Source: Terriglobales bacterium (lineage in GTDB: Bacteria > Acidobacteriota > Terriglobia > Terriglobales > Acidobacteriaceae). Taken from it: DNA of 64,000 nt. Shown in pieces: positions 18,436-61,590 of this stretch; position 1 is the stretch's first letter; each line of letters begins with the position of its first letter. Both the position numbers and the translations under genes were made by a program. The notes below the pieces were generated by a model that was given only the letters and a program-made list of their open reading frames with translations, was not told where the DNA came from and made no database searches. The stretch lies in contig DATJEH010000219.1 in NCBI GenBank assembly GCA_035496875.1, forward strand, positions 3,791 through 67,790. The letters run 5' to 3'.

Positions 18436-20289
<1,854 letters not shown>

Positions 20290-29515: not shown

Positions 29516-30232
29516 ATGCGGACGGCGGCAAAAACACGGCGGCGGCAGATCCTGGCGGCCGCTCTGCGGCTGTTTTCAAGGCAAGGCTTCGACGCCACCA
29601 CAACCCGGGCAATTGCCCAACTGGCGGGAGTCAACGAAGCTATCATTTTCCGGCATTTTACGTCTAAGGAAGAGCTGTACTGGGCGGTTTTGTCGGAACA
29701 GATGCAGGACCGAGAGCCTGCAGACCGGCTAAAGCGAAAATTGCGCTCCCCACGCCATACGCGACAGACAATCGCCGAGGCGGCGGAGACCCTGCTGCGA
29801 AGGGACGATCAGGATGTGGCCTTGACCCGCTTGCTGCTATTCAGCGCGCTTCGGCCGGGCGAATTTTCAGAAAAATTCATTCGTAGTTACATAGGGGAGT
29901 GCTTGACCCTGGTGTCAGAATACATTCGCGAAGGAGTGGAGAAGGGCTGGCTGCGGAACATAGACCCCATGGTGGGGGCCCGCGCTTTTATGGGAATGCT
30001 GGTTTACTACACCCTGCTGGAAGAACCCCTCAGCGCCGCCGGGCATCAAAACTATGATCCCCGCGAGCTAGGTCTGCAACTCGCCGATATATGGCTGAAT
30101 GGAGTTTCTGCCCGCCGGAGTAGCGCAGCGCGTGTGCGATCCAACGCTTCCGGGAAACGCGAGCCACGGGTTGCGGGAAACGGACGCGGCGGCGCTTCTC
30201 AGCCGACGCGAAACCACGTGGCCACAGCCTAA
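29516..30232 (+). CDS. TetR-family transcriptional repressor
   Basis: ILAAALRLFSRQGFDATTTRAIAQLAGVNEAIIFRHFTSKEELY HTH signature. Confidence 0.9.
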   Translation: MRTAAKTRRRQILAAALRLFSRQGFDATTTRAIAQLAGVNEAIIFRHFTSKEELYWAVLSEQMQDREPADRLKRKLRSPRHTRQTIAEAAETLLRRDDQDVALTRLLLFSALRPGEFSEKFIRSYIGECLTLVSEYIREGVEKGWLRNIDPMVGARAFMGMLVYYTLLEEPLSAAGHQNYDPRELGLQLADIWLNGVSARRSSAARVRSNASGKREPRVAGNGRGGASQPTRNHVATA

Positions 30233-30237
30233 GAGAT

Positions 30238-31416
30238 ATGAAATTTGCAAACCATGTTGTCGGTGTGATGCTGCTGCTGGCTGCAACGTCTTTTTTTGTC
30301 GCTTGCAGCGGGGGAAAAGCGCAGCAGAAAACAGCACGTCCCTCGTTTCCTCCAGCTCCCGTAACGGTGTCTGTGGCGGAACAAGCGCCCATACCCATTG
30401 AATTGAATGCCATTGGAAACGCACAATCCTTCCGGACCGTGCAAGTAAAGTCCATGGTGGATGGCCAGATTAACCGTGTGCTGTTCAAACAGGGCGATGA
30501 GGTCCGCGCCGGTCAAATGCTGTTTCAACTGGACAAGCGGCCGTTTCAGGCGGCGCTTGACCAGGCCTTAGGCAAGCTGGAACAGGACCAGGCTACAGCC
30601 GCCAACGCCAAGGCGCAGGCGGCGCGCGACGATGCCCTTCTGAAAGCCGGCGTTCTGGCTCCTCAGGATGCGCAGGCACAAGAGGCGCAGGCGGCGGCTT
30701 ACGCGGCCGCGGTGCAGGCGGACAAAGCAGCGGTGGAGACGGGGCGAGTGAACCTGGGCTACACCGGTATCCGCGCCCCCATAGGCGGGCGCGCGGGCGC
30801 GATTCTGGTCAACCTGGGCAACCTGGTGAAAGCCAACGATAGCAACCCCTTAACCACCATCAATCAGATCCGGCCCATTTACGTGGCCTTCAGCATTCCC
30901 GAGGCGCAACTTCCCGCGGTGCGGGCGCGGGCGCAAGCCGGGCTGCAGGTGCAGGCCGTGGTGCCCAACGATTCCAAGCCGGAGGTTGGGGTTTTAAGTT
31001 TTATTGATAACAGCGTGGATCAGACTACCGGCACCATCAAGCTCATGGGCACGTTCCGCAACCAGGACCAAAAACTCTGGCCGGGCCAGTTCTTCAATGT
31101 GCGCCTGGTGCTGGGCACTGACTCCCGAGCCATCGTGGTGCCGGCTTCGGCCCTGCAGACTGGAGAGAATGGCGGTAAATACATTTACGTAGTGCAACCC
31201 GACGGCACAGCCGTAATGCAACCGGTGAAATCCACTCGCACTTACCGCCAGCTGGCGGTGATAGACAATGGCATCAAGCCGGGACAGCGGGTAATTGTAG
31301 ATGGCCAATATCGGGTTATCCCCAACAGCAAGGTTGAGGTTGTGCGCACGGTTCCGGTCACGACGGGACCGAAGCAAGTGGCGGAGAACGGGAGCGCCTC
31401 CGGAGAACCACAGTGA
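30238..31416 (+). CDS. RND efflux periplasmic adaptor (MFP)
   Basis: Lipobox-like SFFVAC/SG. VKSMVDGQINRVLFKQGDEVRAGQMLFQLD, coiled-coil region, IRAPIGGRAG. Confidence 0.9.
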   Translation: MKFANHVVGVMLLLAATSFFVACSGGKAQQKTARPSFPPAPVTVSVAEQAPIPIELNAIGNAQSFRTVQVKSMVDGQINRVLFKQGDEVRAGQMLFQLDKRPFQAALDQALGKLEQDQATAANAKAQAARDDALLKAGVLAPQDAQAQEAQAAAYAAAVQADKAAVETGRVNLGYTGIRAPIGGRAGAILVNLGNLVKANDSNPLTTINQIRPIYVAFSIPEAQLPAVRARAQAGLQVQAVVPNDSKPEVGVLSFIDNSVDQTTGTIKLMGTFRNQDQKLWPGQFFNVRLVLGTDSRAIVVPASALQTGENGGKYIYVVQPDGTAVMQPVKSTRTYRQLAVIDNGIKPGQRVIVDGQYRVIPNSKVEVVRTVPVTTGPKQVAENGSASGEPQ

Positions 31417-34400
31417 CTGGTCTGTTCATTCGCCGCCCCATCATGACCACGCTGGTGATGGTGGCGATCGTCATTTTCGGTGTTTTCGCCTACCTGGCTT
31501 TGCCGGTGAGCGACTTGCCGAACGTGGATTTTCCCACTATCCAGGTCAATGCCGGCCTGCCGGGAGCAAGCCCGGAGACGATGGCATCGTCGGTGGCTAC
31601 CCCGCTGGAACGGCAGTTCACCACCATTTCCGGCATCACCCAGATGACCTCCAGCAGCCAGCAGGGGTCAACCAGCATCACCATTCAGTTTGACCTGTCG
31701 CGCAACCTGGATGGAGCGGCGGTGGACGTGCAATCGGCGATCGCGGCGGCGGAAGGCCAACTGCCGCCCAACATGCCCACCCCGCCCACCTTCCGCAAGG
31801 TGAATCCGGCCGAGTCCCCCATCCTGTATCTGGCCCTGACCTCTCCCGCCATGCCCATTTACCAGGTGGACGACGCGGCTGAGACCACCATGGGCCAGCA
31901 GCTCTCCATGATTCAGGGAGTGGCGCAGGTGCAGGTGTTTGGCGCCTCCAAGTACGCGGTGCGCGTAAACGTGGATCCCAACAAGATGGCCGCGCAACAG
32001 ATCGGCATGAACGACGTCGCGCAAGCCATCCAAGCCGGCAACACCAACCTCCCCGTAGGCAGTATTTATGCGCCCAGCAAGACCTATACCCTGCAGTCGA
32101 ACGGGCAACTCCTCAACGCCGCCCAGTTTCAGCCCCTGATTGTGGCTTACCGCAATGGCGCCCCGGTGCGGTTGGACCAGATTGCCACCGTGGAAAACGG
32201 CGTGGAGAACCAGTTCGTCAAGGGCGCCCTGAATAACCAGCGGGCCGTCGTCATTGCCATTCAGAAACAGCCGGGCACCAACACGGTGGAGATTGTTGAC
32301 GCCATCAACCGGGTCCTGCCCCGGCTGGAGCAGCAGATTCCGCAATCCATCCAGATCACCACCCTTTACGACCGGTCGGTTTCCATCCGCCAGAGCGTGA
32401 ACGACGTGAAGTTCACGCTGCTTCTGGCGATTGTTCTGGTGGTGCTGGTCATCTTCCTGTTTCTGCGCAACGCATCCGCCACCATCATTCCCAGCCTGGC
32501 CCTGCCCATCGCCATTGTCGGCACTTTCTCGGTGATGTACGCGCTGGGATACACGGTGGACAACCTCTCCCTCATGGCGCTCACGCTATCCGTGGGTTTC
32601 GTGGTGGATGATGCCATCGTGATGCTGGAAAACATCGTGCGCCACATGGAGATGGGCAAAACGCCTTTGCAGGCCTCCCTGGATGGCGCCGGCGAAATCG
32701 GCTTCACCATTCTCTCCATGACTCTGTCACTGGCCGCCGTGTTCATTCCCATTCTGTTCATGGGAGGCATCATCGGGCGGCTGTTGCACGAGTTCGCGGT
32801 GGTGATCACGGCGGCCATCCTGGTGTCTGGGTTGGTGTCGCTGACTTTGACGCCCATGCTCAGCAGCCGCTTTTTGCGGCCGCCTTCGGAGGAACGGCAC
32901 GGCAGGATCTACAACGCGACCGAGCGCATGTTCGATGGCGCGCTGCGGTTCTATGACTGGTCGCTGACCCGGGTGCTACGCCACAAGCTGGCGACCCTTC
33001 TGGTCAGTTTTCTAATTGTGGGATTGACTTTCACCCTCTACGAAAGCACGCAGACAGGCTTTATTCCTAACGAGGATGCGGGGTTGCTCTTCGGTTTTAT
33101 TCAGGCCCAGGAAGGCATCGGCTTCGACCAGATGGGCCAGAAGATGCACCAGATCGCCAGCATCACTCAAGCCGATCCTAACGTCGCATTGACGATGACC
33201 TTCTATGGAAGCCCGGTCAACCAAGGCCGGGTCTTCATGCACCTGAAGGACGTGAAGGACCGGGTAAACCAGATGAGCGCCGAGCAGGTGATCCAGGAAC
33301 TGCGGGCCAAATTTGCCGCCGTCCAGGGAGCATATGTATTCCTGCAAATCCCGCCCACCATCAACGTAGGCGGCAGCCTTAGCAATGCGCAATATCAGTA
33401 TGCTCTGCAGTCACCTGACATCAAGGAGTTGTACGCCGACGCGCCCAGGCTGCAAGCAGAGCTCCGCAAGATTCCCCTGCTGCAGGATGTGAGCAGCGAC
33501 TTGCAGATCCACAACCCGCAACTGGATGTGAAGGTGGACCGCGACAAGGCCTATGCCCTGGGACTGACGGCGCAGGAGGTTTCAGACGCTCTCTATTCGG
33601 CCTTCGGACAGCGCGAAGTCAGCACGATTTACGCGCCCAGCAATGAGTATTACGTCATTTTGAACCTGGCGCCGCCCTACCAGAACGATCCCCAGTCGCT
33701 TTCCTTGCTCTATGTGAGAAATGATCAAGGCAAGCTTATACCCTTGGGCACCGTGGCCCAGGTTGTCCCCGACCTGGGGCCGCTGACCGTCAATCACCTG
33801 GGTCAGTTGCCGGCGGTAACGCTCAGCTTCAACCTCAAACCGGGAATCTCGCTAGGCCAGGCCACCAGGGCCGTGGAAGACGTGGCCAACCGCATGCTCC
33901 CGGCGACCGTCCAGCGCAGTTTCCAGGGGACGGCGCAGGCCTTTCAGCAGTCGTTCCGCGGCCTGGGCCTGCTGCTGGTAGCCGCCATTCTGGTCATCTA
34001 CATTGTTCTGGGCATCCTGTATGAAAGCTTTATCCATCCCCTTACCATCCTGTCGGGCTTGCCCTCGGCCGCAGTGGGAGCGCTGGCCACTCTCATCGTC
34101 TTCCACCAGGAGCTGAACTTATACTCCTTTGTCGGCATCATCATGCTGATAGGCATCGTGAAGAAGAATGCCATCATGATGATTGATTTCGCCCTGGTCA
34201 ACGAGCGGGAGAAGGGGGAGAGCCCCGAGGAATCCATCTATCAAGGCGCCCTGGTGCGCTTCCGCCCCATCATGATGACCACCATGGCCGCGCTCATGGG
34301 CATGGTTCCGGTAGCCGTCGGCTGGGGAACGGGTTCCCTGCAAGGACTGGGATTGGCGGTGGTAGGCGGTCTGATCTTCTCCCAGATCATTACTCTCTAT

Positions 34401-34526
34401 ATAACGCCGGTGTACTACGTCTATCTGGACGAAGTGCAGAACTGGTTGAATCGCAAATGGGCGCGCCTGACCAGTCGCCGCAAACGCGGCGAACCCGTGC
34501 CGCACGAACCGGTTCCTGCCGATTGA
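31413..34526 (+). CDS. RND efflux permease (AcrB/HAE1-like)
   Basis: 1037 aa. FIRRPIMTTLVM start, 12-TM / two-large-loop layout. 4-nt overlap with the MFP gene. Confidence 0.95.
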   Translation: MTGLFIRRPIMTTLVMVAIVIFGVFAYLALPVSDLPNVDFPTIQVNAGLPGASPETMASSVATPLERQFTTISGITQMTSSSQQGSTSITIQFDLSRNLDGAAVDVQSAIAAAEGQLPPNMPTPPTFRKVNPAESPILYLALTSPAMPIYQVDDAAETTMGQQLSMIQGVAQVQVFGASKYAVRVNVDPNKMAAQQIGMNDVAQAIQAGNTNLPVGSIYAPSKTYTLQSNGQLLNAAQFQPLIVAYRNGAPVRLDQIATVENGVENQFVKGALNNQRAVVIAIQKQPGTNTVEIVDAINRVLPRLEQQIPQSIQITTLYDRSVSIRQSVNDVKFTLLLAIVLVVLVIFLFLRNASATIIPSLALPIAIVGTFSVMYALGYTVDNLSLMALTLSVGFVVDDAIVMLENIVRHMEMGKTPLQASLDGAGEIGFTILSMTLSLAAVFIPILFMGGIIGRLLHEFAVVITAAILVSGLVSLTLTPMLSSRFLRPPSEERHGRIYNATERMFDGALRFYDWSLTRVLRHKLATLLVSFLIVGLTFTLYESTQTGFIPNEDAGLLFGFIQAQEGIGFDQMGQKMHQIASITQADPNVALTMTFYGSPVNQGRVFMHLKDVKDRVNQMSAEQVIQELRAKFAAVQGAYVFLQIPPTINVGGSLSNAQYQYALQSPDIKELYADAPRLQAELRKIPLLQDVSSDLQIHNPQLDVKVDRDKAYALGLTAQEVSDALYSAFGQREVSTIYAPSNEYYVILNLAPPYQNDPQSLSLLYVRNDQGKLIPLGTVAQVVPDLGPLTVNHLGQLPAVTLSFNLKPGISLGQATRAVEDVANRMLPATVQRSFQGTAQAFQQSFRGLGLLLVAAILVIYIVLGILYESFIHPLTILSGLPSAAVGALATLIVFHQELNLYSFVGIIMLIGIVKKNAIMMIDFALVNEREKGESPEESIYQGALVRFRPIMMTTMAALMGMVPVAVGWGTGSLQGLGLAVVGGLIFSQIITLYITPVYYVYLDEVQNWLNRKWARLTSRRKRGEPVPHEPVPAD

Positions 34527-42674: not shown

Positions 42675-43820
42675 TCACTTCACTTCCTGCGTCACGATAT
42701 GGACATCCACCGGCGGAGCGTCCCTGAGAAATTTGTGGATAGCAGATAGGTACAAATACCGGCGCCAGCCGATCTGTGCGGACCGCCCAAACACTACTTG
42801 GGTTATATGTTTCTCGCGAACGATCTTGGCCACCTCTTGCGCCACTTTCTTGCCCCTGGTGCGAATGATTTGCGCGCCTACATCTTGTGCGAACTTGATG
42901 TTTTGTTGCAGAGAATGCTGATCCTGCGGACTCTCGTCCACGCCGATATCTACGTAGATGACGAACAGTTCGGCATCAATGCGTTGTGCCATGCGGGCGG
43001 CACGAGCGATCAGATACTGCGCCGCGGGGCTGGAACTGATGCACACCGCGATACGTTCACGGACCGCAACGCTTTTGGTCCCTCCCTCCTTTTCCAGCAA
43101 CGATTCCAGGCTGCGGTCCACGGCGCGAGTCACCTGCTGGAGAGCCAGTTCGCGCAACGCCAGCAGATTACCCGGACGGAAAAAGTGTCCCAGTGCACGT
43201 TCCGCCCGGTCGAGCGGATAAATGTCGCCCCGACGCATGCGGGTCTGCAAGGCTTCCGGCGTCAGATCCACGAGCACAATCTCGCTTACTCTCTGCATGA
43301 CCCAATCCGGCACCGTCTCGCGCACCTGAACTCCCGTGATCTGATGGATCATTGGCATTAAGCTCTCGATGTGCTGCACGTTCATGGTGGAAAGCACGTC
43401 AACGTTGGCGTCCAGCAGTTCCATCACGTCTTGGTACCGCTTGGCATGTTTGCTGCCTTCGATGTTGGTGTGCGCCAGCTCATCTACCAGGGCCACCTGC
43501 GGCTTGCGCCGCAGGATGGCCTCAATATCCATCTCATCAAAACTGGCGCCCTTGTACTCGATTTTGCGGCGCGGAATGGTCTCCAATTTTGAACCCAGCT
43601 CAGCCACTGCCTTGCGGCTGTGAGTCTCCACTAAGCCGATCACCACGTCTTCGCCCCGGCTCTTGCGGCGGATGCCCTCGCTCAACATGTTGAATGTCTT
43701 GCCTACACCTGGGGCATAGCCCAGAAACAGCTTGAAAATCCCCTGTTCCCTGTGGGGCGTCACCTCCTCCAGCCATTGTTCCGGCGTCTTGGGCATTTCG
43801 AGTAGCTCCTCCTGGATCAC
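42675..43820 (-). CDS. kdpD: KdpD N-terminal sensor module only (P-loop KdpD domain + Usp domain), no kinase
   Basis: LGYAPGVGKTFNML Walker A, VDELAHTN, Usp-like C-terminus. Ends 7 nt before kdpE. Confidence 0.85.
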   Translation of the reverse strand: MIQEELLEMPKTPEQWLEEVTPHREQGIFKLFLGYAPGVGKTFNMLSEGIRRKSRGEDVVIGLVETHSRKAVAELGSKLETIPRRKIEYKGASFDEMDIEAILRRKPQVALVDELAHTNIEGSKHAKRYQDVMELLDANVDVLSTMNVQHIESLMPMIHQITGVQVRETVPDWVMQRVSEIVLVDLTPEALQTRMRRGDIYPLDRAERALGHFFRPGNLLALRELALQQVTRAVDRSLESLLEKEGGTKSVAVRERIAVCISSSPAAQYLIARAARMAQRIDAELFVIYVDIGVDESPQDQHSLQQNIKFAQDVGAQIIRTRGKKVAQEVAKIVREKHITQVVFGRSAQIGWRRYLYLSAIHKFLRDAPPVDVHIVTQEVK

Positions 43821-43846: not shown

Positions 43847-45289
43847 GTGAAGCGAGCTGCTGAAAACCAGATACTACGCTTTCTCGTCGCCGCCGCCACG
43901 GTTTGCCTGATTACCGCTGTGTATTTCCGCTGGCTGCACGTCAATCCTACAACGGTTGGGTTCACGTTTTTGCTGGCTGTCCTGGTGATTTCCGCCGGCT
44001 GGGAACTTCGCTATGCCATCTTCATGGCCATTCTCGCCACTTTGGCCTACAACTACTTCTTTCTCCCTCCCCTGCTTCACCTCACAATCGCCGATCCCCA
44101 GAACTGGGTCGCCCTTCTGACATTCCTGCTTACCGCCATCATTGCCAGCCAGCTTTCTGAGCGCGCCCGCCGCAAAGCCGTGGAATCTAACCAGCGCCGG
44201 CGCGAAGTCGAACGCCTGTATGCCTTCAGTCAGCAGTTGCTGGTTTCTGAGAACGTGTTTGAGTTGCTGAACCTCGTTCCCAGGTACATTGTGGATTCCT
44301 TTGACGTCACCGGCGCTGCTATGTTTCTGGAGGGCAAACAGGAATTTTATTATCTCGATGCAGCCAGCAGATCTCTATTTCCTGCCGATCAGCTCAAAGC
44401 CATCAGTGGTCGTGGAGAGCCCGTTTTTGAACGCGAGCGCGGCCTCTGCTTTATGCCGCTTCGCATGGGCGTTCGCTCGGTGGGAAGCATCGGCCTGGCT
44501 GGCTGTGAGTTATCGCGGGAATCGCTGGAGGCCATTGGCAGCCTGACTGCGATAGCCATTGAACGCGCGAACACGGTCGAGAAATTGACGAAGGCCGAAG
44601 CGGCGCGAGAGAGTGACCGCCTCCGTTCTGTATTGCTGGACTCCATGACGCACGAATTCCGTACTCCCCTTACCTCTATCAAGGCATCGGCCGAGACACT
44701 CCTCTCGGACGCCGAGTTGGAGAAACCGGAGCGCAAGGATTTGCTCACAGTCATTAATGAGGAGAGCGACAGACTTAATCGGCTCATCGGCGAAGCAGCG
44801 GAAGTAGCGCAGTTGGATGCACATCAACTCGAACTTCACTTGCAACTGCATAACATTCGTGAGGCCGCGGAAACCGCCATCGCCAAGTTACAACACGAGC
44901 TTCAGCCCTATACCGTGCAGTCGAGCATTCCGGAGGACCTGCCTCTGGTCCGAATGGATGTTGCTCGCATCACCGAAGTACTCGTACACCTTCTCGATAA
45001 CGCCAGCAAATACTCCGCGCCAGGCACGATTATTCAGATCACCGCCGAACATCGCGATGGGGAAATTGTTACCAGCATCGCCGACCATGGACCCGGAATT
45101 GACGAGATAGAGCAACCGATGATCTTTGAGAAATTCTATCGCGGCCGGGATCAGCGCATGCTTATCCAGGGCACGGGTATGGGGCTCGCCATTGCCAAGG
45201 CCATCGTTGAACTGCACGGCGGCGCGATTGGGGTCACCAGCCAACTCGGCCGTGGGTCACTGTTTTACTTTTCTCTTCCAGTCGCCTAA
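43847..45289 (+). CDS. kdpD: KdpD C-terminal module: 4-TM (DUF4118-like) + GAF-like + histidine kinase
   Basis: GTG start. Four TM segments, H-box LDSMTHEFRTPL, LLDNASKY, DHGPGI, GTGMGLAI. Confidence 0.85.
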   Translation: MKRAAENQILRFLVAAATVCLITAVYFRWLHVNPTTVGFTFLLAVLVISAGWELRYAIFMAILATLAYNYFFLPPLLHLTIADPQNWVALLTFLLTAIIASQLSERARRKAVESNQRRREVERLYAFSQQLLVSENVFELLNLVPRYIVDSFDVTGAAMFLEGKQEFYYLDAASRSLFPADQLKAISGRGEPVFERERGLCFMPLRMGVRSVGSIGLAGCELSRESLEAIGSLTAIAIERANTVEKLTKAEAARESDRLRSVLLDSMTHEFRTPLTSIKASAETLLSDAELEKPERKDLLTVINEESDRLNRLIGEAAEVAQLDAHQLELHLQLHNIREAAETAIAKLQHELQPYTVQSSIPEDLPLVRMDVARITEVLVHLLDNASKYSAPGTIIQITAEHRDGEIVTSIADHGPGIDEIEQPMIFEKFYRGRDQRMLIQGTGMGLAIAKAIVELHGGAIGVTSQLGRGSLFYFSLPVA

Positions 45290-48702: not shown

Positions 48703-48731
48703 TTGACACCCCGGTTGACGTTTGTTAGAGT
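48703..48731 (+). promoter_or_regulatory. candidate sigma-70 promoter of the GAF-MFP / MFP / M50-MFP operon
   Basis: TTGACA (48703-48708), 17 nt, TAGAGT (48726-48731). Confidence 0.4.
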
Positions 48732-48820
48732 CGCGCGGCACTGGCCAGGACGCGCGGCCCATGCTCTCCGCAAGCTGCTGGGAGCTAAAGCTTTGTCCTG
48801 CCTGAACGGAGCGCCGCAAG

Positions 48821-51226
48821 ATGGCGACTCAACGCCACGGTTTTGAAATTCCTCTGGCCGACTTTGCCGCCACGCTGCTGCTGCAGCGCGAAGTGGGGCA
48901 GCGTGCGCAGCTCATCGCCGAGCAGGCAGCCCAACTTGAACCGGGCTGCGACGTAGCCGTTTATGTCATTGAGGACCAAGAAGATCCGTCTTGGACACGC
49001 AAGGGGCTGAGCGGCGACCTGGGAGCGGGCAGCGAGCAAATTGAATTCCACTCGGGAACCCTGGGCATGGTGGCCGAACTCGCGGCACCCTACCTGCTGC
49101 TGCATGGCTCCCAGCTGGCGCGCGAAGACTACGCCCACCTTGATGTCCGCCGCACCCTGGCCTCTCTAGCTTACGTTCCCCTGCTCGCCGATGGCAGCCT
49201 GGTAGGCGCCCTCGAACTGGTCGGCTACGACCGTCCGCTCTCTCATTCCCTGCTGGAGCGTGTCAGCTCTCTGGCCCAGCTTGCCGCTCCCGCCCTTGCC
49301 TCGGCCGCCGCTTACGAAAGTGAACGCAACAGCAGCCTGCAGTCCATCACCCGGGTCACGCAGATGTACGACCTGGAAAAGGTCTTCAACTCCAACCTGG
49401 AGATGAACGAACTGCTGGCTACCATCGCCGCCAAAGTGCAGGAAGTCATGAGTGTGCAGGCGGCTAACGTCTGGATGGTCGAGGGCGAGACCGTCACCCT
49501 GGTGCAGCAGGAGGGCGCGGATCCAACCGTGCAATCGGGTGCCCGGCAAGGCCCAGCCGATGGCGTAGCGGGGAAGATTTCCGATGACGGCGAACCTGTG
49601 CTGATTGATGACCCGGAGGACGCACGCCTGCGCGCCCGCAACGCCGATGTCGAAGACGGGACCGTCTTCTCTCTGCTGGCTCTGCCGCTCATGGATCGTG
49701 AGTCTCTGGTCGGCGTCATCGAGGTGGTCAATCGCCTGGACGGCCAGTCCTTCGATGAAGACGACCAGTTTGTGCTCTCCAATATCTGCGAGACCGCCAG
49801 CAACGCCCTGCACAATGCCAGCCTGCTCCAGGCGGAGCGCAAACTGGAAATCCTGCACGCGCTGGTCAAAGTCAGCGCCGAAATCACCTCCACGCTGAAC
49901 CTGGAGCGGGTTCTGCAGACCGTGGTCAACGGTCCGTCGTCGGTGGTTCCTTACGAACGCGCGGCCATCGCGCTGGAGGAACGCGGCAGGACAAAATTGC
50001 GAGCCGTTTCGGGAAAGCCGCAGGTCAATGCCGCTGACCCGGGAATGGCGAATTTGAGCGAGCTTCTGCAGTGGGCCGCGTTCTTCGAATCCGATGTTTC
50101 CGCCGCGCGCCACGGCGACGAGGTAACCACCAGCCGCGCCGAGGCGCAGGAAAAATTCCGCCATTACTTCGCGGCCAGCGGTATGCGCGGCTTCTATGCC
50201 TTGCCTTTGCGGGACGATGAGGGCGCGGTCGGCATCCTCTCCTTCGAGAGCTCCGATCCCGATTTTCTCAGCGATCCGCATCTGGAAATGATCCGCGTGC
50301 TGGGCGCCCAGGCGACGGTGGCCATCCGCAACGCTTCCCTCTACCGCGAAGTGCCTTTCATCAACGTGCTGGAGCCGCTGCTCCAGAAAAAGCAGAAATT
50401 TCTCGCCCTGGAGAAGCGGCGCCGCGCCTTGTTCCTGGCGGCCGCGGCGGTGGCGGTTGTTTTTCTTGCCGTATTTCCCTTCCCCATGCGGGTGGAGGGA
50501 GGCGCTACCGTTTCTCCTTCCCGCCTGGCCAGGATCGAGCCCGAGGTCGCGGGCGTGGTCCGCCAGGTCTACGTCCGCGAGGGGCAACACGTCGCGCGCG
50601 GCCAGGTGCTCGCCGACCTGGAAGACTGGGACTACCGCGCCGCGCTGGCCGGAGCCGAAGCCAAATACCAGACCGCGCTCTCGGAAATGAACCACGCTCT
50701 GGCCCACAACGACGGAGCCGCCGCCGGCGTGCAGCGCGTGCAGGCCAATTACTGGCAGTCAGAGGTTCAGCGCGACCAGCAGCGTCTGGAAAAAACGCAT
50801 CTGCGCTCGCCCGTGGACGGCTGGGTAACCACGCCCCACGTGCAGGACATTACCGGACGAAAGTTTGAGCCGGGGGATAACTTCGCGGAAGTGGCCGACA
50901 ATTCCACGGTGACGGTGAACGTAGCGGTGGATGAGCCTGACTTGCCGATGCTGCGCACCGGCGCCCGCGGCTGGGTGAAGCTGGACGGATTCCCGGCTCG
51001 CACATTCAAGGGAACCGTAGACATCGTCAGCCCGCAGAGCGAGATGGCGGGAGATCAACGCACCTTCTACGCCCGGGTTGAGGTTTCTAATCCCGGGAAC
51101 GTGATTCGAGCCGGCATGAGCGGGCGCGCCAAGGTGGCAGTCGGCTGGCACCCGGTGGGCTACGTTCTGTTTCGCCGGCCCGCCATATGGCTCTACAGCA
51201 AGCTCTGGTCCTGGTTCTCGTGGTGA
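48821..51226 (+). CDS. cytoplasmic multi-GAF sensor fused through one TM to an HlyD-type membrane-fusion module
   Basis: About 520 aa of repeated GAF-like units. TM RRALFLAAAAVAVVFLAVFPFPM. MFP motifs EPEVAGVVRQVYVREGQHVARGQVLADLED and LRSPVDGWVT. Confidence 0.8.
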   Translation: MATQRHGFEIPLADFAATLLLQREVGQRAQLIAEQAAQLEPGCDVAVYVIEDQEDPSWTRKGLSGDLGAGSEQIEFHSGTLGMVAELAAPYLLLHGSQLAREDYAHLDVRRTLASLAYVPLLADGSLVGALELVGYDRPLSHSLLERVSSLAQLAAPALASAAAYESERNSSLQSITRVTQMYDLEKVFNSNLEMNELLATIAAKVQEVMSVQAANVWMVEGETVTLVQQEGADPTVQSGARQGPADGVAGKISDDGEPVLIDDPEDARLRARNADVEDGTVFSLLALPLMDRESLVGVIEVVNRLDGQSFDEDDQFVLSNICETASNALHNASLLQAERKLEILHALVKVSAEITSTLNLERVLQTVVNGPSSVVPYERAAIALEERGRTKLRAVSGKPQVNAADPGMANLSELLQWAAFFESDVSAARHGDEVTTSRAEAQEKFRHYFAASGMRGFYALPLRDDEGAVGILSFESSDPDFLSDPHLEMIRVLGAQATVAIRNASLYREVPFINVLEPLLQKKQKFLALEKRRRALFLAAAAVAVVFLAVFPFPMRVEGGATVSPSRLARIEPEVAGVVRQVYVREGQHVARGQVLADLEDWDYRAALAGAEAKYQTALSEMNHALAHNDGAAAGVQRVQANYWQSEVQRDQQRLEKTHLRSPVDGWVTTPHVQDITGRKFEPGDNFAEVADNSTVTVNVAVDEPDLPMLRTGARGWVKLDGFPARTFKGTVDIVSPQSEMAGDQRTFYARVEVSNPGNVIRAGMSGRAKVAVGWHPVGYVLFRRPAIWLYSKLWSWFSW

Positions 51227-51238
51227 GGAGGAGTAAAG

Positions 51239-52144
51239 ATGCGATTGGCTAGCTGGTTTCTGATGGCAGCGCTGGCAGCAGGCCTGGTCGCCTGCAGCGA
51301 CTCCGGGCCACAGGCGGTGACGCCAGTTCTAGCGGCGTCAGAGCCCACAGGGCCTCCTGTAGCGAGCCCTCCAGCCACTCCACCAAAGGCTGGCGCCGTG
51401 GTGGCCTCCGGTCCCTTACTGGTAGAGGACCAAGTAGATGTCTCCACCCAGCGCGCCGGGGTGGTAGCGCAACTGCTCGTTGATGTGGGCCAGACGGTGC
51501 GCAGGGGAGAGCAGTTGGCCACCCTGGACGACCGCCAACTCACCGCCGAACGCGATGCCGCCCAGGCCCAGGTCCAGGTCGCGCAAGCCAATCTCAAAGA
51601 CTGGCAGGCAGAAACCAGGATGGCGGAAGCCGACTTCCGCCGCGCCGAGGGCATGTTTAAGGCCCAGCTCAACACCCAGGAACAACTTGATCATGCCCGC
51701 TACAAGTGGCAAGGGTCGGTCTATGAAATCGAAAAGGGCCAACAAGAACTGCTCCAGCGGCAGGCTGCTTTACGGGCCGTGAGCCTGGAACTGGAAAAAA
51801 CCCACATTCGCGCTCCCTTCGACGGCGTGATCGCCCGCCGCTACGTACGCCTGGGACAGGAAGTCGCAAGCGGCGACCGCCTCTTCTGGGTCACCGCGGT
51901 AAGGCCTTTGCGAGTCAAATTCACTTTGCCGGAAAAGCTCATCGGACAGGTCAAGCGCGGGCAGATGCTGAGCGTGAGCTGCCTTGATGAACCGGGCGCA
52001 ACGCACCAGGCCCGGGTTCTCCAGGTAAGTCCGGTGGTGGACCCTTCCAGCGGAACCTTCGAGGTGCTCGCCCAGTTGGTGAATCCCGGCCCTAATCTCC
52101 GTCCGGGAATGACGGCTAACATCCGGCTTGGGAACGTGCGATGA
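51239..52144 (+). CDS. HlyD/MFP-family periplasmic adaptor lipoprotein
   Basis: GAGGAGGAG SD. Lipobox LAAGLVAC|SD. STQRAGVVAQLLVDVGQTVRRGEQLATLDD, coiled coil, IRAPFDGVIARRYV. Confidence 0.8.
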   Translation: MRLASWFLMAALAAGLVACSDSGPQAVTPVLAASEPTGPPVASPPATPPKAGAVVASGPLLVEDQVDVSTQRAGVVAQLLVDVGQTVRRGEQLATLDDRQLTAERDAAQAQVQVAQANLKDWQAETRMAEADFRRAEGMFKAQLNTQEQLDHARYKWQGSVYEIEKGQQELLQRQAALRAVSLELEKTHIRAPFDGVIARRYVRLGQEVASGDRLFWVTAVRPLRVKFTLPEKLIGQVKRGQMLSVSCLDEPGATHQARVLQVSPVVDPSSGTFEVLAQLVNPGPNLRPGMTANIRLGNVR

Positions 52145-54288
52145 ACATTCTCGAGGCCCTGGAAGTTGCTCTTCCAGAGCTCCCGGGCCGCACAGGTAAG
52201 CCGCGCTATCCCCAGCTTGACTCGCGGGTGATCGCCCGCGAACACGTCGAGCAGGGCGCTCCGACGGTACTGGCCAAGATGCCGGGGGCGGAAAACTTTA
52301 TCCGTCTTCCGCCGTCGCAATGGAAGCTGGTCCAGTTGTTCGACGGACAGCGCTCCTACCAGGACATTAGCAAGCAGTCCACCGCGGTTGCCGGGGCGTT
52401 CTACTCCGAAGACGAAGTACGCCATCTGGCCGATTTCTTTCAGGACAATACCAATTTCTTCTACAAGACCCCGCTGGAAGAAAACGTCACGCTGCACGAC
52501 AAGCTGCGCAGCCAGCGCCAGCACCGCCGTAGCCGCTTTAGCGACCTGGGGGAAGTGCCCCTGCTGGAATGGAAGAATGCGGACGATTATCTCAGCCGCA
52601 TTCAGCCCAGACTTAAATTCATTTACACGCGCTGGTTTACGCTGCTGACGCTGGGCATGTTCGCCCTCATGCTCTATCTCTGGATGGACCGTTTTCAGGA
52701 GATCTGGCGCGACAGCTTCGAGTACTACAACTTTACCGATAAAGGGCTTTCTGACCTCGTCGAGTTCTGGTTCTTTTTCGGGGTGATGGCGTTCATTCAC
52801 GAAACCGCCCATGGCCTGACCTGCAAAAACTACGGCGGCAGAGTGGAGAAGATGGGCTTCATCCTGATGTACTTTGCGCCCACTTTCTACTGCGATGTCA
52901 CCCAGATCTGGATCTACGGCGACCGCTGGGAGCGGGTGGCCACGGTTATCGCCGGTATCTGGGCCGACCTGATGATTTGTGTGGTGGCCACGATCGTCTG
53001 GTGGGCCACTCCCGTGGGCATGCCCAGCCACGACCTCGCCTACAAGGTGATGATGGTCACCGGCATCGGAGTCAGCCTGCTCAACCTGAATCCGCTCATC
53101 AAGCTGGATGGCTACTATCTGTTTTCCGAACTTACGGGAGAAGTGGACCTCAAGGAAACCACCACGGCTTACGTGTCGTCGTGGGTGCGAAGAAACATTT
53201 TTTGCCTTCCTGTGGAAATTGAATGGGTTCCGCGCCGGCGGCGGGTCTTCTACCTGATTTACGCCCTGCTCTCTGGGGTTTACAGCTACGGCCTGCTGGT
53301 GGTGGTTGTCCTTTTCGTTTATCACGTGCTCCGGTCGTACTCGCCGGAATGGGCCTTCGTACCCGCCCTGATCATTGCCTATTTCATGTTTCGCAAGCGC
53401 ATTTGGAGCTCGCTCACTCTTATGAAGGCAGCTTATCTGGACAAAAAAGAACGGCTTCGGAAATGGCTTTCCCCTCCCCGCCTGGTGGCCATCACCGTAG
53501 TGGCAGCGCTGGTCTTGCTCGCTCCGGTGTGGCCGGAGTTCGTGCGCGCCCAGTTCCTTGTGGAACCGCTCCGGCGGGCCATCATCCGCGCCCAGGTTCC
53601 CGGACAGGTGGAGCGGGTGTTTATCCAGGAAGGAGAACGGGTGCAGGCCGGCCAGCCGGTGGCGCAACTGAGCAACCTGGCGCTGCAATCACAGGCGGCC
53701 CGGGTCCATTCCGACCTGGAAATCGCAACCGCTGGCGCTGTCCAGGCCCAACTCCGCTATTCAGGGATGGCTTCGGCCGGGCATTTGCGTGACCAACTGA
53801 CCCAACAGGACCATCTGCTTAGCCAGCAGCTAGCCGCACTGCGGGTGCTGTCCCCCATCTCCGGAGTGGTTACCACCCCGCGCCCCGGCGACCTGCACGG
53901 CTCCTATTTGCGGGCAGGCAGCGAGGTGGCTGAGATCGCCGAGATGTCCACTATGCAGGCGCGTATCTTTGTGCCCGAGTTCGCCATGCGCGACGTCCGG
54001 CTAGGGGCTCCGGTCCATCTTCTGCCCAGCTCAAGAACCGGCTCCATCGCCGGAAAGCTCGACGCCGTTGCTCCCGCCAGCACTCAGACGGACCCCAGTT
54101 TCGTTGAAACAAGCAATCTGAAGGGCATCAATCTGCCCGACTACTATCTGGCCACGGTTCGTTTTCCTAATCCGGGAACGGCGCGAGAAGGCGAGACAGG
54201 TACGGCCAAGATCTTCGTCCGGCGCCGCAGTTTGGCAGGCTTCACCTGGGAATATGTGCGCGACATGGTCACCCACCGTTTGTGGTGA
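52141..54288 (+). CDS. PqqD/RRE-like domain + M50 (site-2-protease type) intramembrane metalloprotease + HlyD-type membrane-fusion module
   Basis: ATGA overlap with the upstream gene. ENFIRLPPSQWKLVQLFDGQRSYQDI; HETAHG (HExxH); NLNPLIKLDGYY (NxxPxxxLDG). C-terminal IRAQVPGQVERVFIQEGERVQAGQPVAQLSN and VLSPISGVVTTP. Confidence 0.8.
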   Translation: MNILEALEVALPELPGRTGKPRYPQLDSRVIAREHVEQGAPTVLAKMPGAENFIRLPPSQWKLVQLFDGQRSYQDISKQSTAVAGAFYSEDEVRHLADFFQDNTNFFYKTPLEENVTLHDKLRSQRQHRRSRFSDLGEVPLLEWKNADDYLSRIQPRLKFIYTRWFTLLTLGMFALMLYLWMDRFQEIWRDSFEYYNFTDKGLSDLVEFWFFFGVMAFIHETAHGLTCKNYGGRVEKMGFILMYFAPTFYCDVTQIWIYGDRWERVATVIAGIWADLMICVVATIVWWATPVGMPSHDLAYKVMMVTGIGVSLLNLNPLIKLDGYYLFSELTGEVDLKETTTAYVSSWVRRNIFCLPVEIEWVPRRRRVFYLIYALLSGVYSYGLLVVVVLFVYHVLRSYSPEWAFVPALIIAYFMFRKRIWSSLTLMKAAYLDKKERLRKWLSPPRLVAITVVAALVLLAPVWPEFVRAQFLVEPLRRAIIRAQVPGQVERVFIQEGERVQAGQPVAQLSNLALQSQAARVHSDLEIATAGAVQAQLRYSGMASAGHLRDQLTQQDHLLSQQLAALRVLSPISGVVTTPRPGDLHGSYLRAGSEVAEIAEMSTMQARIFVPEFAMRDVRLGAPVHLLPSSRTGSIAGKLDAVAPASTQTDPSFVETSNLKGINLPDYYLATVRFPNPGTAREGETGTAKIFVRRRSLAGFTWEYVRDMVTHRLW

Positions 54289-54291
54289 GCC

Positions 54292-54328
54292 CAAACACAA
54301 AAAAAGGCCGCGCCCAGCAGGCGCGGCC
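54292..54328 (-). terminator. rho-independent terminator of the small Lys/Ala-rich gene
   Basis: Minus strand GGCCGCGCC-TGCTG-GGCGCGGCC followed by TTTTTTTGTGTTTGG. Confidence 0.8.
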
Positions 54329-54353
54329 CTAGACGAAGAGGCGTGAGGCCAGC

Positions 54354-54578
54354 TTAGAACCTTACTTTTGCCGTCATCTTGGCGCCGACCTTCGCCGCCA
54401 GCTTGGCTCCGATCTTGGGAGCTGCCTTTGCCATGACCTTCGGGGCCGCCTTGGGCGCGACTTTCGGGGCAACCTTCGGCGTGACGCTGGCGGTCGCAAA
54501 ATCTCTTTCCGGGCTGGCCACAATGGCCTTGGTCACGGCTGCGCGCTGGCTGATCAAAGACTTTTTCTGCACCGACAT
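54354..54578 (-). CDS. 74-aa Lys/Ala-rich cationic protein (histone-H1-like repeats or amphipathic peptide precursor)
   Basis: AAGGAGAA SD 5 nt before the ATG, with its own terminator. PKVAPKVAPKAAPKVMAKAAPKIGAKLAAKVGAKMTAKVRF. Confidence 0.75.
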   Translation of the reverse strand: MSVQKKSLISQRAAVTKAIVASPERDFATASVTPKVAPKVAPKAAPKVMAKAAPKIGAKLAAKVGAKMTAKVRF

Positions 54579-54647: not shown

Positions 54648-54663
54648 TGCACCGCGAATGCCA
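54648..54663 (-). promoter_or_regulatory. candidate sigma-54 (-24/-12) promoter for the Lys/Ala-rich gene
   Basis: Minus strand TGGCATTCGCGGTGCA. GG and GC have the canonical 12-nt register. About 70 nt upstream of the ATG, directly downstream of the sigma-54 activator gene. Confidence 0.5.
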
Positions 54664-54832: not shown

Positions 54833-56239
<1,407 letters not shown>

Positions 56240-56385: not shown

Positions 56386-56442
56386 GGGCGACGCCTTTCT
56401 TCAGCGGCGGACGGCATGTCCCCGCTTCGGCACGAGGAAGCC

Positions 56443-56781
56443 ATGGACATCAATATGCAGCGGCGGTCACAGGTTGAGATCATCCAGTTGCGCGGCCCCC
56501 TGCGCCTGGGCCCGGCGGTCAACGAATTCCGCCAGGCGCTGGACCAGTCCCTCAGTAATGGCGACACCCGCATCGTTCTCGACCTGGCCGAAGTCCCCAT
56601 GATTGATTCCAGCGGCATTGGCGTGCTCATGAAGTCGCTGGCCTCCGCCCGCCAGCGCGGGGGCAACATCAAGCTGGTGAATCCCTCCAAATTTGCCGTC
56701 CAGACCCTGCGCATGGTGGGCCTGCTCAACCTGTTTGAGGTCTTTGCCGACGCGGACGCGGCTGTGGCTTCCTTCGCCTAA
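56443..56781 (+). CDS. STAS-domain anti-sigma-factor antagonist
   Basis: GAGGAAG SD before ATG 56443. MIDSSGIGVLMKSL contains the conserved phosphorylatable Ser context. Confidence 0.85.
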   Translation: MDINMQRRSQVEIIQLRGPLRLGPAVNEFRQALDQSLSNGDTRIVLDLAEVPMIDSSGIGVLMKSLASARQRGGNIKLVNPSKFAVQTLRMVGLLNLFEVFADADAAVASFA

Positions 56782-56789
56782 GCCCACCG

Positions 56790-57227
56790 ATGTCGCCCAC
56801 ACCCACTCCCGGCGCGAACCACTCCGGCCTGCGGCGCCAGCTTAGTCTGGCCATCCCTGCAGACGCAGAGCAAATCGCCCAGGCTACGGACGCTGTTCTG
56901 GCCTGCTTGGCGAACCTGAAGGTCGAAGGAGAGAAAAGCATGGCCATCGGCCTGGCGGTACAGGAAGCATTAGCCAACGCGGTGACCCACGGCTGCCAGA
57001 ATGACGCCTCAAAGATGGTGCAATGTGAGCTTAGCTGTGATGAGGACGGCCATATACTGATTGTGGTTACCGATCCCGGCCCCGGCTTCGATTTCTCCGC
57101 TGCCCCTAAGCCTGTGGTCCAGGACGTTTACAACGACCACGGCCGGGGCGTCTTTCTCATCCGCCAACTCATGGACGAGGTCAGCTTCGAGCGCGGCGGC
57201 AGCATCATCCAGATGTGGAAATTTTGA
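56790..57227 (+). CDS. RsbW/SpoIIAB-like anti-sigma factor Ser kinase (HATPase_c)
   Basis: QEALANAVTHG N-box, VTDPGPGFD G1-box, GRGVFLIRQLMDEV. Confidence 0.8.
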   Translation: MSPTPTPGANHSGLRRQLSLAIPADAEQIAQATDAVLACLANLKVEGEKSMAIGLAVQEALANAVTHGCQNDASKMVQCELSCDEDGHILIVVTDPGPGFDFSAAPKPVVQDVYNDHGRGVFLIRQLMDEVSFERGGSIIQMWKF

Positions 57228-60192: not shown

Positions 60193-61482
60193 CTACCGGC
60201 ATTTGGCAATGATCAGGGTGCGGTCGTCATACTGCTCGCGCGGACTGAACTGGTTCACTTCGTTGACGATGGAAGCGATCAAGAGTCGCGATGGCAGCTC
60301 GCGATGTCGCTGCAGCGATTCGATCAGACGTTCTTCCCCGAATTCCTCGCCCCGGCTGTTGAAGGACTCGGTTACGCCGTCCGTGTACAAGGCAAGCGTA
60401 TCTCCTGAAGATATTGGAACTTCCCGCGTGCAGCACTCCCATTCCGGGAACAGCCCCAGGACCGTGCAGGTAGAGTGGAGGCGCTCCACATCGCCATCCT
60501 GCCGCAAAAGAAGAGCGCAGAGGTGCCCGCAGTTGGCGTAATGCAGCCGCCGCTGAGGTTGGTCGTATTCGGCAAAGATCAACGTGGCATAGGCGTTGTC
60601 AGTCGAATTCTCGTAGAACAGCCGATTCACCATCTGCAGGAAACGCCTAGGTTGGTCGGATGCAATGGCGCACTGGCTGCGCAGGTTCGCTTGCAGGTTG
60701 GCCATGAGAAGAGCAGCGGCGATTCCCTTCCCGGAAATATCCCCAAGCACCAGCCCGAGCCGCTCCCGCCCCAAATCCAGGAAGTCATAGTAGTCGCCGC
60801 CCACCTGCCGTGCCTGGATGCAGATGCCCGAATAATCGAGGGTCGCAAGGGGTGGCAAGATCTGAGGAAACAACCTGGTCTGCACCAGCTTGGCGATTTC
60901 CAATTCCTGAGCCGCCCGGCGCTCCGCTTCTAATTTTGCCGCCGCCGCCCGGCGCTGCTCCTCAACCGCACGGCTCTCCTCGTCGTAGCTCACCAAAGCA
61001 AAGGAGTTTCCGTCGGGGTCCCTGAAATGGGTCATGGCCCCGCCCCACAGCGGCTCCTGCGGTTCCGAAGCAGCTGAGCGCTGGCTCAAATCCAGGGCTG
61101 CTTGGCGTGCATATTTAAGGCGTTTCAGACGCGGCGCGTATTGAAAGCGGACTCCACGCTTGAGCCATTCGCCGTACTTGCCCACAAAGTCGTCGGTGAC
61201 GAAAACCACGTGCAACGAGTGCCCAATCAGGCTGTGCTCTTTAGACTCGGGTTTGGGTGCGACCAGAGACAAGACCGTGCTGCCATCGGGAGGCGCGACC
61301 GCCACCCAGCGCTCGCCCGATTCAAAGCGGACGTCCCCTACCAGACTGAACCCCAACTGGTCCACAAAGAAGCGCAGGCTCACATCCTGATCGTGAACGA
61401 AAACATTGACGGCATGAATGCGAAGATGCGCCGGCTGCGGCTGCGGCGCCCGCTCCTCCGCGCGTGAGGCAGAGCTGCCCAT
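60193..61482 (-). CDS. VOC/glyoxalase-like domain fused to a PP2C (SpoIIE-type) phosphatase
   Basis: IHAVNVFVHDQDVSLRFFVDQLGF...VVFVTDD (VOC-like). GGDYYDF ... LGDISGKG ... YTDGVTES (PP2C). Start set at MGSSAS (61482); 61590 is possible. Confidence 0.8.
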   Translation of the reverse strand: MGSSASRAEERAPQPQPAHLRIHAVNVFVHDQDVSLRFFVDQLGFSLVGDVRFESGERWVAVAPPDGSTVLSLVAPKPESKEHSLIGHSLHVVFVTDDFVGKYGEWLKRGVRFQYAPRLKRLKYARQAALDLSQRSAASEPQEPLWGGAMTHFRDPDGNSFALVSYDEESRAVEEQRRAAAAKLEAERRAAQELEIAKLVQTRLFPQILPPLATLDYSGICIQARQVGGDYYDFLDLGRERLGLVLGDISGKGIAAALLMANLQANLRSQCAIASDQPRRFLQMVNRLFYENSTDNAYATLIFAEYDQPQRRLHYANCGHLCALLLRQDGDVERLHSTCTVLGLFPEWECCTREVPISSGDTLALYTDGVTESFNSRGEEFGEERLIESLQRHRELPSRLLIASIVNEVNQFSPREQYDDRTLIIAKCR

Positions 61483-61590
61483 CCGGGTGATTATAGCCTC
61501 GAACGCCGGCTCGGATGAGGCGCCACCAGCGACCTCCGGAGCTGACTGTTGCTTTGCATCAAGGGAGCAAGCGTGTATGCTTTCGGCCAC

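Follow-up and report, generated by a model that had tools for sequence, protein, structure and literature searches.

The window, which is the whole 64,000-nucleotide stretch of contig DATJEH010000219.1 from a Terriglobales bacterium analysed here, contains an operon of three translationally coupled genes, each of which encodes a protein with a MacA/MexA-like adaptor as its C-terminal part, and a small open reading frame (ORF) on the opposite strand. The product of the third gene (gene 3) is a fusion of a domain that resembles the recognition element (RRE) of peptides that are made by ribosomes and modified after translation (RiPPs), an M50 site-2 protease and an adaptor. The small ORF encodes a conserved leader followed by a basic repeat core. 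The reading towards which we lean is that this locus encodes an apparatus for leader-guided processing and envelope export, along with the substrate of that apparatus. The features on which this reading is based are as follows (aa, amino acids; TM, transmembrane).

48703-48731 (+): sigma-70-like promoter TTGACA-17-TAGAGT, 5' of gene 1; consensus match only, at 10 of 12 positions.
48821-51226 (+): gene 1, 801 aa, with ATG at 48821; three GAF domains, one TM span and a periplasmic adaptor.
51239-52144 (+): gene 2, 301 aa, a lipoprotein adaptor with the lipobox LVAC; RND_mfp and HlyD_D23/HlyD_3.
52141-54288 (+): gene 3, 715 aa, fusion of RRE-like domain, M50 protease and adaptor (Pfam, NCBIfam and AlphaFold2 model).
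52210-52476 (+): PqqD/RRE-like N-terminal domain of gene 3, aa 24-112 (AlphaFold2 topology and family profile matches).
52573-53469 (+): M50 (site-2 protease) membrane core of gene 3 (Pfam Peptidase_M50), with HETAHG at 52798-52815 and NLNPLIKLDGYY at 53083-53118.
53548-54288 (+): C-terminal adaptor of gene 3 (aa 470-715), which follows the last TM span at aa 445-466 (Foldseek and Pfam HlyD_3/HlyD_D23).
54304-54330 (−): intrinsic terminator with a 12-bp stem, 9 GC pairs and a T run, after the small ORF and facing the end of gene 3.
54354-54578 (−): small ORF of 74 aa, in which MSVQKKSLISQRAAVTKAIVAS precedes a basic repeat core rich in AK/PK; a candidate for the substrate or precursor peptide.
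54648-54663 (−): sigma-54 promoter with the sequence TGGCATtcgcgGTGCA; it lies 69 nt upstream of the small ORF and is the sole match in the window.

Gene 2 starts 12 nt after the stop codon of gene 1, and this gap contains GAGGAGGAG directly before gene 2. Genes 2 and 3 are joined by an ATGA overlap at 52141-52144. The cytoplasmic region of the gene 1 protein contains three GAF stretches at about aa 20-505 (Pfam GAF_2/GAF, with GAF_2 at 1e-31). Its sole hydrophobic span according to hydropathy lies at aa 536-554 (nt 50426-50482), and the periplasmic adaptor module is located at aa 557-801 (Pfam HlyD_D23, 3e-29). The gene 2 protein, in which the Cys residue of the lipobox is residue 19, matches Pfam HlyD_D23 and HlyD_3 and exceeds the cut-off of the NCBIfam model TIGR01730 RND_mfp (174 bits versus 94.9); this cut-off is likewise exceeded by the gene 1 protein. 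HlyD_D23, HlyD_3 and Biotin_lipoyl_2 are found by Pfam across all three proteins.

A model of gene 3 was built by AlphaFold2 from 69 homologues, with a mean predicted local distance difference test score of 82.5. In this model the N-terminal domain, at residues 31-103, consists of three strands and then three helices (strands 31-37, 40-46 and 54-56; helices 58-64, 73-84 and 90-103). It is followed in order by a helical membrane core, the last TM span at aa 445-460, a lipoyl domain, an alpha-hairpin and a beta-barrel. The helices of the hairpin (513-539 and 543-565) are about 25 residues each, which is a MexA-like length. The Foldseek search of this model against the PDB returns MacA, MexA and AcrA at E-values of 1e-13 to 1e-12. 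Because only adaptors are among the 50 best matches listed for the whole of gene 3, the M50 and RRE folds were judged by sequence profiles and by the topology of the model. The motifs FIRLPPSQWKLVQLFDGQRSYQDI, HETAHG and NLNPLIKLDGYY are located at residues 53-76, 220-225 and 315-326 respectively. The membrane core matches Pfam Peptidase_M50 (PF02163) at 32 bits, above the cut-off of 27.2. It contains both M50 signatures, HExxH and NxxPxxxxDG (here NxNPxxxxDGY), the latter being the third zinc ligand motif, and H220, E221, H224, N315, N317, P318, D323, G324 and Y325 are invariant in 69 gene 3 homologues down to 21% identity. The family profile of the N-terminal domain matches PqqD (3g2b, E-value of 3.8e-4), the lasso-peptide leader binder TbiB1 (5v1u, 4e-3) and also PqqCD, whereas the N-terminal domain of the window gene 3 alone has no significant match to Pfam PqqD. 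Pfam PqqD is matched individually by 16 of 29 gene 3 relatives, and several relatives are named 'PqqD family peptide modification chaperone' by NCBI. Because of these profile matches and names, the assignment of this domain as an RRE is supported at the family level.

The first-pass annotation, which was made from the letters of this DNA, had described three coupled genes that each end in an HlyD-type adaptor, with the 12-nt gap and the ATGA overlap given above. It had also described gene 1 as GAF repeats followed by a single TM span and an adaptor. The ORFs, the junctions and the Pfam and NCBIfam matches agree with this description. The operon start, which it had placed at 48703, has to be corrected, since this position belongs to the first hexamer of the sigma-70-like promoter and is not a start codon. 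The profile searches that it had proposed for the M50, adaptor and GAF assignments support all three of them. Of the three parts that it had assigned to gene 3, the M50 core and the adaptor hold for the window protein itself, but the PqqD/RRE part holds for the family and not for the window copy taken alone.

More than 1,500 proteins are closely related to gene 3; all are about 715 aa long, and most come from Terriglobales. In a 50%-clustered library, gene 3 is represented by 1,469 clusters at E < 1e-30. Synteny was compared in 80 genome loci with a gene 3 identity of 39-91%, all but four of which are titled Acidobacteriota (Terriglobia-type names). The GAF region of gene 1 is detected by tblastn in 77 of these 80 loci, gene 2 in 78, the gene for a sigma-54-dependent regulator in 75 and the gene for a STAS protein in 72. 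In the gene-order table the regulator gene follows gene 3 and is on the minus strand, and the STAS gene either comes after the regulator gene or is divergent from gene 1. The remaining flanking genes vary, and no transporter is conserved among them. The arrangement of the trio is not a chance one, because gene 1, gene 2 and the regulator gene are retained in 75 or more of the 80 loci.

An ORF of 57-158 aa is present on the minus strand between gene 3 and the regulator gene in 75 of the 79 loci with enough flanking sequence. The first approximately 22 residues of its product form a conserved leader with the consensus sIQKKSLIsnL..tKKAivA, in which K-K-S-L is invariant. This leader is followed by a short S/T/P/A linker and then by tandem repeats that are wholly different between relatives, with VRTG, LAKGT, ARVTPG, KTA, LGGKN, DLAKRV, AFKPG and PGLQTAKH among the repeat units. 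The core of the window peptide consists of degenerate APKV/AAKV units, and its C-terminus is ...KVRF. The median content of K+R in the cores is 21%, and that of D+E is 0%. The third codon positions of the leader vary more (0.41) than the first and second positions (0.22 and 0.19), and the periods of all 18 strongly periodic DNA arrays are multiples of 3. The small ORF has a Shine-Dalgarno (SD) sequence. In 51 of the 75 loci, as compared with 0.5% of control windows, a sigma-54-type element, TGGYAY-N5-NTGC, precedes the ATG by 41-81 nt, which is an enrichment of approximately 140-fold. The codon-position pattern, the period-3 arrays, the SD sequence and terminator and the sigma-54 promoter indicate that the small ORF is a real protein-coding gene; for the same reasons, together with the conserved leader, the possibility that it is a non-coding tandem repeat was rejected. 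The family comprises 795 clusters in the protein collection, all of which are unnamed or 'hypothetical', and has no Pfam or NCBIfam model. The repeat cores match models of the histone H1-like protein Hc2 weakly and below the thresholds (Pfam HC2, 7e-7; NCBIfam, 4e-4). Some cores, such as those of the loci L060 (VKMVKM...AKLAKLAKR) and L061, closely resemble synthetic KLAKLAK-type amphipathic peptides, and it may be speculated from this resemblance and from the hypervariability of the cores that the peptides have an antagonistic or surface role. The small leader-repeat peptide is probably the substrate of the trio. Two tandem peptide genes with the Terriglobia-type leader are present in L071 at 19467-20403 (+), away from the usual position, and two others are present in L121 at about 10300-10650 (−).

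The closest characterised relative of gene 3 is the daptide leader peptidase MpaP (NF041824). In daptide biosynthesis, MpaP, in which an N-terminal RRE is fused to a site-2 protease, is assigned the removal of the leader, and the precursors encoded next to MpaP genes carry the leader motif ELExMEAP. Residues 24-416 of gene 3 align to 365 of the 379 positions of the NCBIfam model NF041824 for the daptide RRE-site-2-protease (E-value of 1e-45). The score of 156.4 bits is below the equivalog cut-off of 300, indicating that gene 3 is a relative of this family rather than a member of it. Like MpaP, gene 3 has an N-terminal RRE-like domain followed by an M50 core, and, as in daptide clusters, the trio co-occurs in these 75 loci with a short ORF for a conserved leader and a variable core. 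Unlike MpaP, gene 3 carries an additional C-terminal TM span and an adaptor, and two further adaptors are encoded in the operon. Unlike the hosts and precursors of daptides, the host of the window is Gram-negative, and the cores consist of basic repeats and lack a C-terminal Thr. The neighbouring genes encode no MpaB, C, D or M modification enzyme, and no decarboxylase, aminotransferase or methyltransferase of the daptide tailoring kind. The locus was rejected as a daptide cluster because of the score below the cut-off and the lack of tailoring enzymes and of a C-terminal Thr.

Distant RRE-M50-adaptor genes in other phyla also adjoin leader-bearing genes. Small ORFs with ..(V/I)EELEERIAP(D/S) and an N/G/P-rich tail are present in seven copies in L088, in five copies in L155 and in one uncalled copy in L086 (Verrucomicrobia), and small ORFs with LEERIAP are also present in L150, L161 and L164. 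These LEERIAP leaders resemble the daptide leader ELExMEAP. The strict motif has 10 matches in 80 loci of wider relatives, 9 of which share the strand of the protease gene, as compared with approximately 1 expected by chance according to our own estimate from amino-acid frequencies. Giant proteins that start with KKLEERIAP or KLEERVAP are encoded in L087 (Oligoflexia), L089 (Planctomycetes) and L113. The giants in L087, L089, L113, L173 and L174, with LEERIAP or LEPR-XLL N-termini, have no hydrophobic signal peptide as judged by eye. In the non-Terriglobia Acidobacteria L085, L091 and L093, a longer leader that ends with LEGRESP or ADRGNP is followed by repeats. Arrays of 3-7 LEERIAP ORFs are located directly upstream of the RRE-M50-adaptor gene (L088, 2775-3650 and 9094-9778; L155, 6500-7800; L086, about 9814). 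The peptide genes of L085 (12255-12857, −), L091 (12372-12773, −) and L093 (about 10709, −) are at the same position, with the leader ..V(I/T)KLT(N/E/D)EQ..ATGQ(E/D)(I/V)TE.KV.., and their repeats, such as RKAPFGGGDAESA and LADRANPS, are acidic or neutral.

Several plasmids carry the homologous genes together with other components. On the Thalassospira plasmid pCSC3H3 (L173), the order is a LEPR-XLL giant, DUF3467, a 622-aa adaptor, the RRE-M50-adaptor protein, a 287-aa adaptor and TolC. This giant (4,033 aa, with the N-terminus ..VEPIEPRILLSAD) matches NF012209 at 29 bits, as compared with a cut-off of 17. A Niveispirillum plasmid encodes a giant protein (..LALEPRMMFDAA) and then TolC and three adaptors. 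Plasmids of Pseudosulfitobacter and Methylosinus encode a giant, DUF3467, an adaptor, a 'PqqD family' M50-adaptor protein and a SecA-like ATPase, and that of Methylosinus additionally encodes another adaptor and TolC. The two SecA-like ATPases are 38-43% identical to residues 16-651 of E. coli SecA. With a SecA-like ATPase and TolC in these proteobacterial loci, at least some relatives possess a separate motor and not the protease alone. The Methylosinus SecA-like gene is annotated as 'prepilin peptidase' despite its 43% identity to E. coli SecA, and the giants in L174, L177 and L178, of up to about 12,700 aa, are annotated as DUF4347, Ig-domain and LamG-like proteins.

Genes for ATP-binding cassette (ABC), resistance-nodulation-division (RND) and major facilitator superfamily (MFS) transporters, outer membrane factors (OMF) or outer membrane efflux proteins (OEP) and SecA-like proteins are all absent within 10 kb of the trio according to Pfam and tblastn. 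A scan for Walker A and LSGGQ motifs finds no ABC ATPase in the whole window. No ABC or RND pump is encoded in the Thalassospira, Niveispirillum, Pseudosulfitobacter or Methylosinus clusters, and none is conserved in any set of loci. With E. coli SecA as a query, tblastn gives no match in the window or in L005-L084; matches are obtained only in L152 and L171 among the initial loci, and SecA-like genes are also present in L177 and L178. DUF3467 occurs neither in the window nor in the 80 Terriglobia loci. A TolC/OEP partner is absent from the window and adjoins homologous trios in L087, L102, L122, L173, L174 and L178. The sole RND pump of the window is encoded at 29516-34526 (+), 14 kb upstream of gene 1 (tblastn). 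This region encodes a TetR protein, a 392-aa adaptor and a 1037-aa RND pump, without an OMF, and forms an ordinary efflux operon that is separate from the trio. The relatives do not conserve this operon, and RND homologues are found in only four other searched loci (L003, L004, L005 and L050), without consistent placement. The possibility that the trio is a fragment of an ordinary tripartite pump was rejected, because no transporter is linked to it in approximately 80 relatives and the RND sets of L003 and the window have adaptors of their own and are not conserved.

The genes within 10 kb of the trio include kdp genes and genes for a porin and FadB upstream, and downstream those for the sigma-54-dependent regulator, the STAS protein, an RsbW-like kinase, a HEAT protein and a SpoIIE phosphatase. 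The regulatory genes are located as follows.

54833-56239 (−): sigma-54-dependent response regulator with receiver, AAA+ and HTH_8 domains (Pfam Sigma54_activat, 2e-67); the gene is convergent with the trio and lies upstream of the small ORF.
56416-56781 (+): STAS anti-sigma antagonist (Pfam).
56790-57227 (+): RsbW-like kinase (Pfam), which forms a partner-switching pair with the STAS protein and is often linked to the trio.

The STAS protein, the RsbW-like kinase and the SpoIIE phosphatase may act as a partner switch that feeds into the regulator or the apparatus. The phosphatase is a Glyoxalase-SpoIIE protein encoded at 60193-61590 (−). A second PP2C-type phosphatase of the window, an FHA-GAF-SpoIIE protein, is encoded at 20362-22020 (−). 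KdpD is seemingly split into a protein with the sensor and Usp domains (42675-43820, −) and a DUF4118-HisKA-HATPase kinase (43847-45289, +), and the latter gene adjoins those for a KdpE-like regulator and kdpABC.

The C-terminal modules of all three proteins have the fold of MacA, MexA and AcrA. Unlike these adaptors, genes 1-3 have no detected membrane-proximal domain and no cognate pump, and two of the three adaptors are fused to large cytoplasmic or membrane domains. In type I exporters of bacteriocins and microcins, such as CvaAB-TolC, a C39 ABC transporter cleaves the leader at the inner membrane, and the product leaves through the adaptor and TolC. The logic proposed for the trio, removal of a recognised leader at the inner membrane followed by passage through an adaptor/TolC conduit, is similar. 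The locus, however, has no ABC transporter, C39 domain or double-glycine leader, and its protease is a putatively RRE-guided M50 metalloprotease. SpoIVFB is an M50 protease that trims the short N-terminal pro-sequence of the soluble pro-sigma-K. Unlike gene 3, it has neither an RRE nor adaptors, and its product stays in the cytoplasm.

A module consisting of GAF-HlyD, Peptidase_M50-HlyD, SecA_DEAD and HlyD proteins was described in silico in 2015 by Kamneva, Poudel and Ward (PMC4452313). The authors proposed a type I-like system with the M50 protein as the inner-membrane component, stated that its biological role was unknown, and presented no experiments apart from reanalysed published expression data (PMC4452313). 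The window has the same three types of adaptor-bearing proteins in one operon, but, unlike that module (PMC4452313), neither the window nor the 80 Terriglobia loci have a SecA_DEAD ATPase, DUF3467 or an adjacent TolC. The Pseudosulfitobacter and Methylosinus plasmids combine these types of genes with a SecA-like gene. The accessible text mentions neither an RRE nor a leader motif nor a substrate, and the phyla listed in the title do not include Acidobacteria (PMC4452313). Our literature search on the leader motifs and on M50 with HlyD found no functional or experimental study. What is new here is that a predicted RRE-M50 leader peptidase is combined with type I-like adaptors and has a candidate substrate family not described before.

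Other statements of the first-pass annotation concern these comparisons. It had reported that no ABC, RND, MFS or TolC gene is located within about 10 kb of the operon, and this is correct, the nearest RND set being 14 kb upstream. The survey of gene neighbourhoods that it had proposed shows that the trio is kept across Terriglobia (77-78 of 80 loci) and beyond, and that an associated short ORF, which it had not listed itself, encodes a conserved leader and a variable core under a sigma-54 promoter. Its expectation that relatives lack an adjacent pump holds for ABC and RND pumps, none of which is conserved, but some distant relatives have TolC and a SecA-like ATPase. It had known of no characterised example of the architecture. 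This is true in so far as no experimental study was found, but the module had been described in silico (PMC4452313) and the RRE-site-2 protease is known from daptides. Its interpretation of the trio as a signal-controlled device for peptide processing and export is partly supported, by the domains, the synteny, the lack of a pump and the associated leader peptide; export, gating by the GAF domains and a protease in the role of the pump are hypothetical parts of it.

According to the reading that we favour, a phosphorylation signal would activate the sigma-54-dependent response regulator, which in turn would switch on the small gene at 54354-54578. The product, a 22-residue conserved leader with a variable polycationic repeat core, would be bound at its leader by the cytoplasmic RRE-like domain of gene 3, and the leader would be cut off by the M50 intramembrane protease of the same protein. 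Recognition and cleavage of the leader are proposed because of the homology of gene 3 to MpaP. The core would then leave through a periplasm-spanning assembly of the three adaptors, those of gene 1, of the gene 2 lipoprotein and of gene 3. The probable docking partner of this assembly is a TolC-type channel whose gene lies in another part of the genome. Gene 1, with its three GAF domains in the cytoplasm, would couple a small-molecule signal to the assembly or its gating. We infer export because three bona fide adaptors are encoded, homologous clusters contain TolC and SecA-like proteins, and their giant, extracellular-type cargoes are judged by eye to have no Sec signals; the stoichiometry of the adaptors and the outer-membrane partner are likewise conjectural.

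Several points weigh against this reading. The window encodes neither an energising component nor an OMF, and none of three OEP queries nor E. coli SecA matched in approximately 80 Terriglobia loci. The expulsion of a polycationic peptide against the inside-negative membrane potential costs energy, and characterised site-2 proteases, SpoIVFB with pro-sigma-K for example, release their products on the cytoplasmic side. The non-significant PqqD match of the window N-terminal domain is a further such point. No similarity between the leaders of Terriglobia and the LEERIAP leaders is detectable by hhalign (probability of 0.1%), and neither the window peptide nor its relatives match LEPR-XLL (NF012209) in NCBIfam, so that the idea of the Terriglobia leader as a diverged LEERIAP/LEPR-XLL leader is not supported. 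The main rival explanation, which we consider unlikely, is regulated intramembrane proteolysis without export. According to this explanation, the M50 protease clips the amphipathic leader and a histone-H1-like polycation is freed to the cytoplasm or the inner membrane, whereas the adaptors and GAF domains are envelope and metabolic sensors that license the cleavage and form no conduit. The active sites of site-2 proteases face the cytoplasm and their products usually go inward, which fits this explanation, as do the sub-threshold Hc2 matches of the repeat cores, the absence of a pump, an ATPase and an OMF from the locus, and the developmental or stress-type regulators around it (sigma-54 regulator, STAS, RsbW and SpoIIE). 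However, three paralogous adaptors with hairpins of MexA length, which is taken as a TolC-docking length, are hard to see as sensors. Homologous systems are accompanied by TolC, a SecA-like motor and giant extracellular-type proteins, and the extreme hypervariability of the core among close relatives suits a nucleoid protein less well than a product that is secreted or antagonistic.

Somewhat less likely again is the explanation that the adaptors serve an unlinked conventional transporter (an ABC transporter, another exporter or the housekeeping SecA) and a distal TolC, and that gene 3 only recognises and cleaves the leader, as a C39 domain does. The tip of the gene 2 hairpin, R-x3-M-x6-T, is similar to the RLS motif at the hairpin tip of adaptors that bind TolC, the SecA-like ATPase inside some proteobacterial clusters indicates that a separate motor exists in the family, and OMF genes are often unlinked according to the 2015 paper (PMC4452313). 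This explanation does not readily account for the lack of a linked transporter in approximately 80 Terriglobia loci, nor for its lack in the Thalassospira and Niveispirillum clusters, which already hold a substrate, three adaptors and TolC; the covalent fusion of adaptor and protease also argues that the protease itself is the inner-membrane partner. It is improbable, finally, that the small ORF is unrelated to the trio and encodes an independent repeat protein under sigma-54 control, while the trio acts on another, unlinked substrate or on a lipid. The peptide gene is indeed a separate transcription unit on the opposite strand, but in 75 of 79 loci, which span 39-91% gene 3 identity, it is found at the same place and in the same direction while the other flanks change, and the pairing of an RRE-M50-adaptor gene with a leader-bearing gene recurs in unrelated phyla.

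If the reading of the locus as a processing and export apparatus is true, it would tie RRE-guided leader cleavage, familiar from the RiPP biosynthesis of Gram-positive bacteria, to export across the whole envelope of Gram-negative bacteria, and the three-adaptor module, a bioinformatic curiosity since 2015, would gain a concrete candidate substrate. A wider proposal, which is put forward tentatively, is that the RRE-M50-adaptor protein, its partner adaptors and TolC constitute a distinct and widespread secretion pathway of diderm bacteria, in which the N-terminal leader is recognised and cleaved in the membrane and no ABC, RND or MFS pump is needed to move the cargo outward. This cargo would range from LEPR-XLL/LEERIAP giants to the Terriglobia peptides, the Terriglobia form would work even without a SecA-like motor, and the cores may be cut into many short cationic antimicrobial, matrix or signalling peptides. 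Such pump-independent export, if shown, could define a new secretion route, and the system may explain how the many giant LEPR-XLL proteins, judged by eye to have no Sec signal peptides, leave the cell. The cultured strains Granulicella sp. S190 (L043) and Tunturibacter empetritectus M8US30 (L047) carry the full locus, and therefore genetics is feasible. For the soil Acidobacteria, the small ORFs represent an unannotated family of approximately 800 hypervariable cationic repeat peptides, which could be antimicrobials, matrix components or signals.

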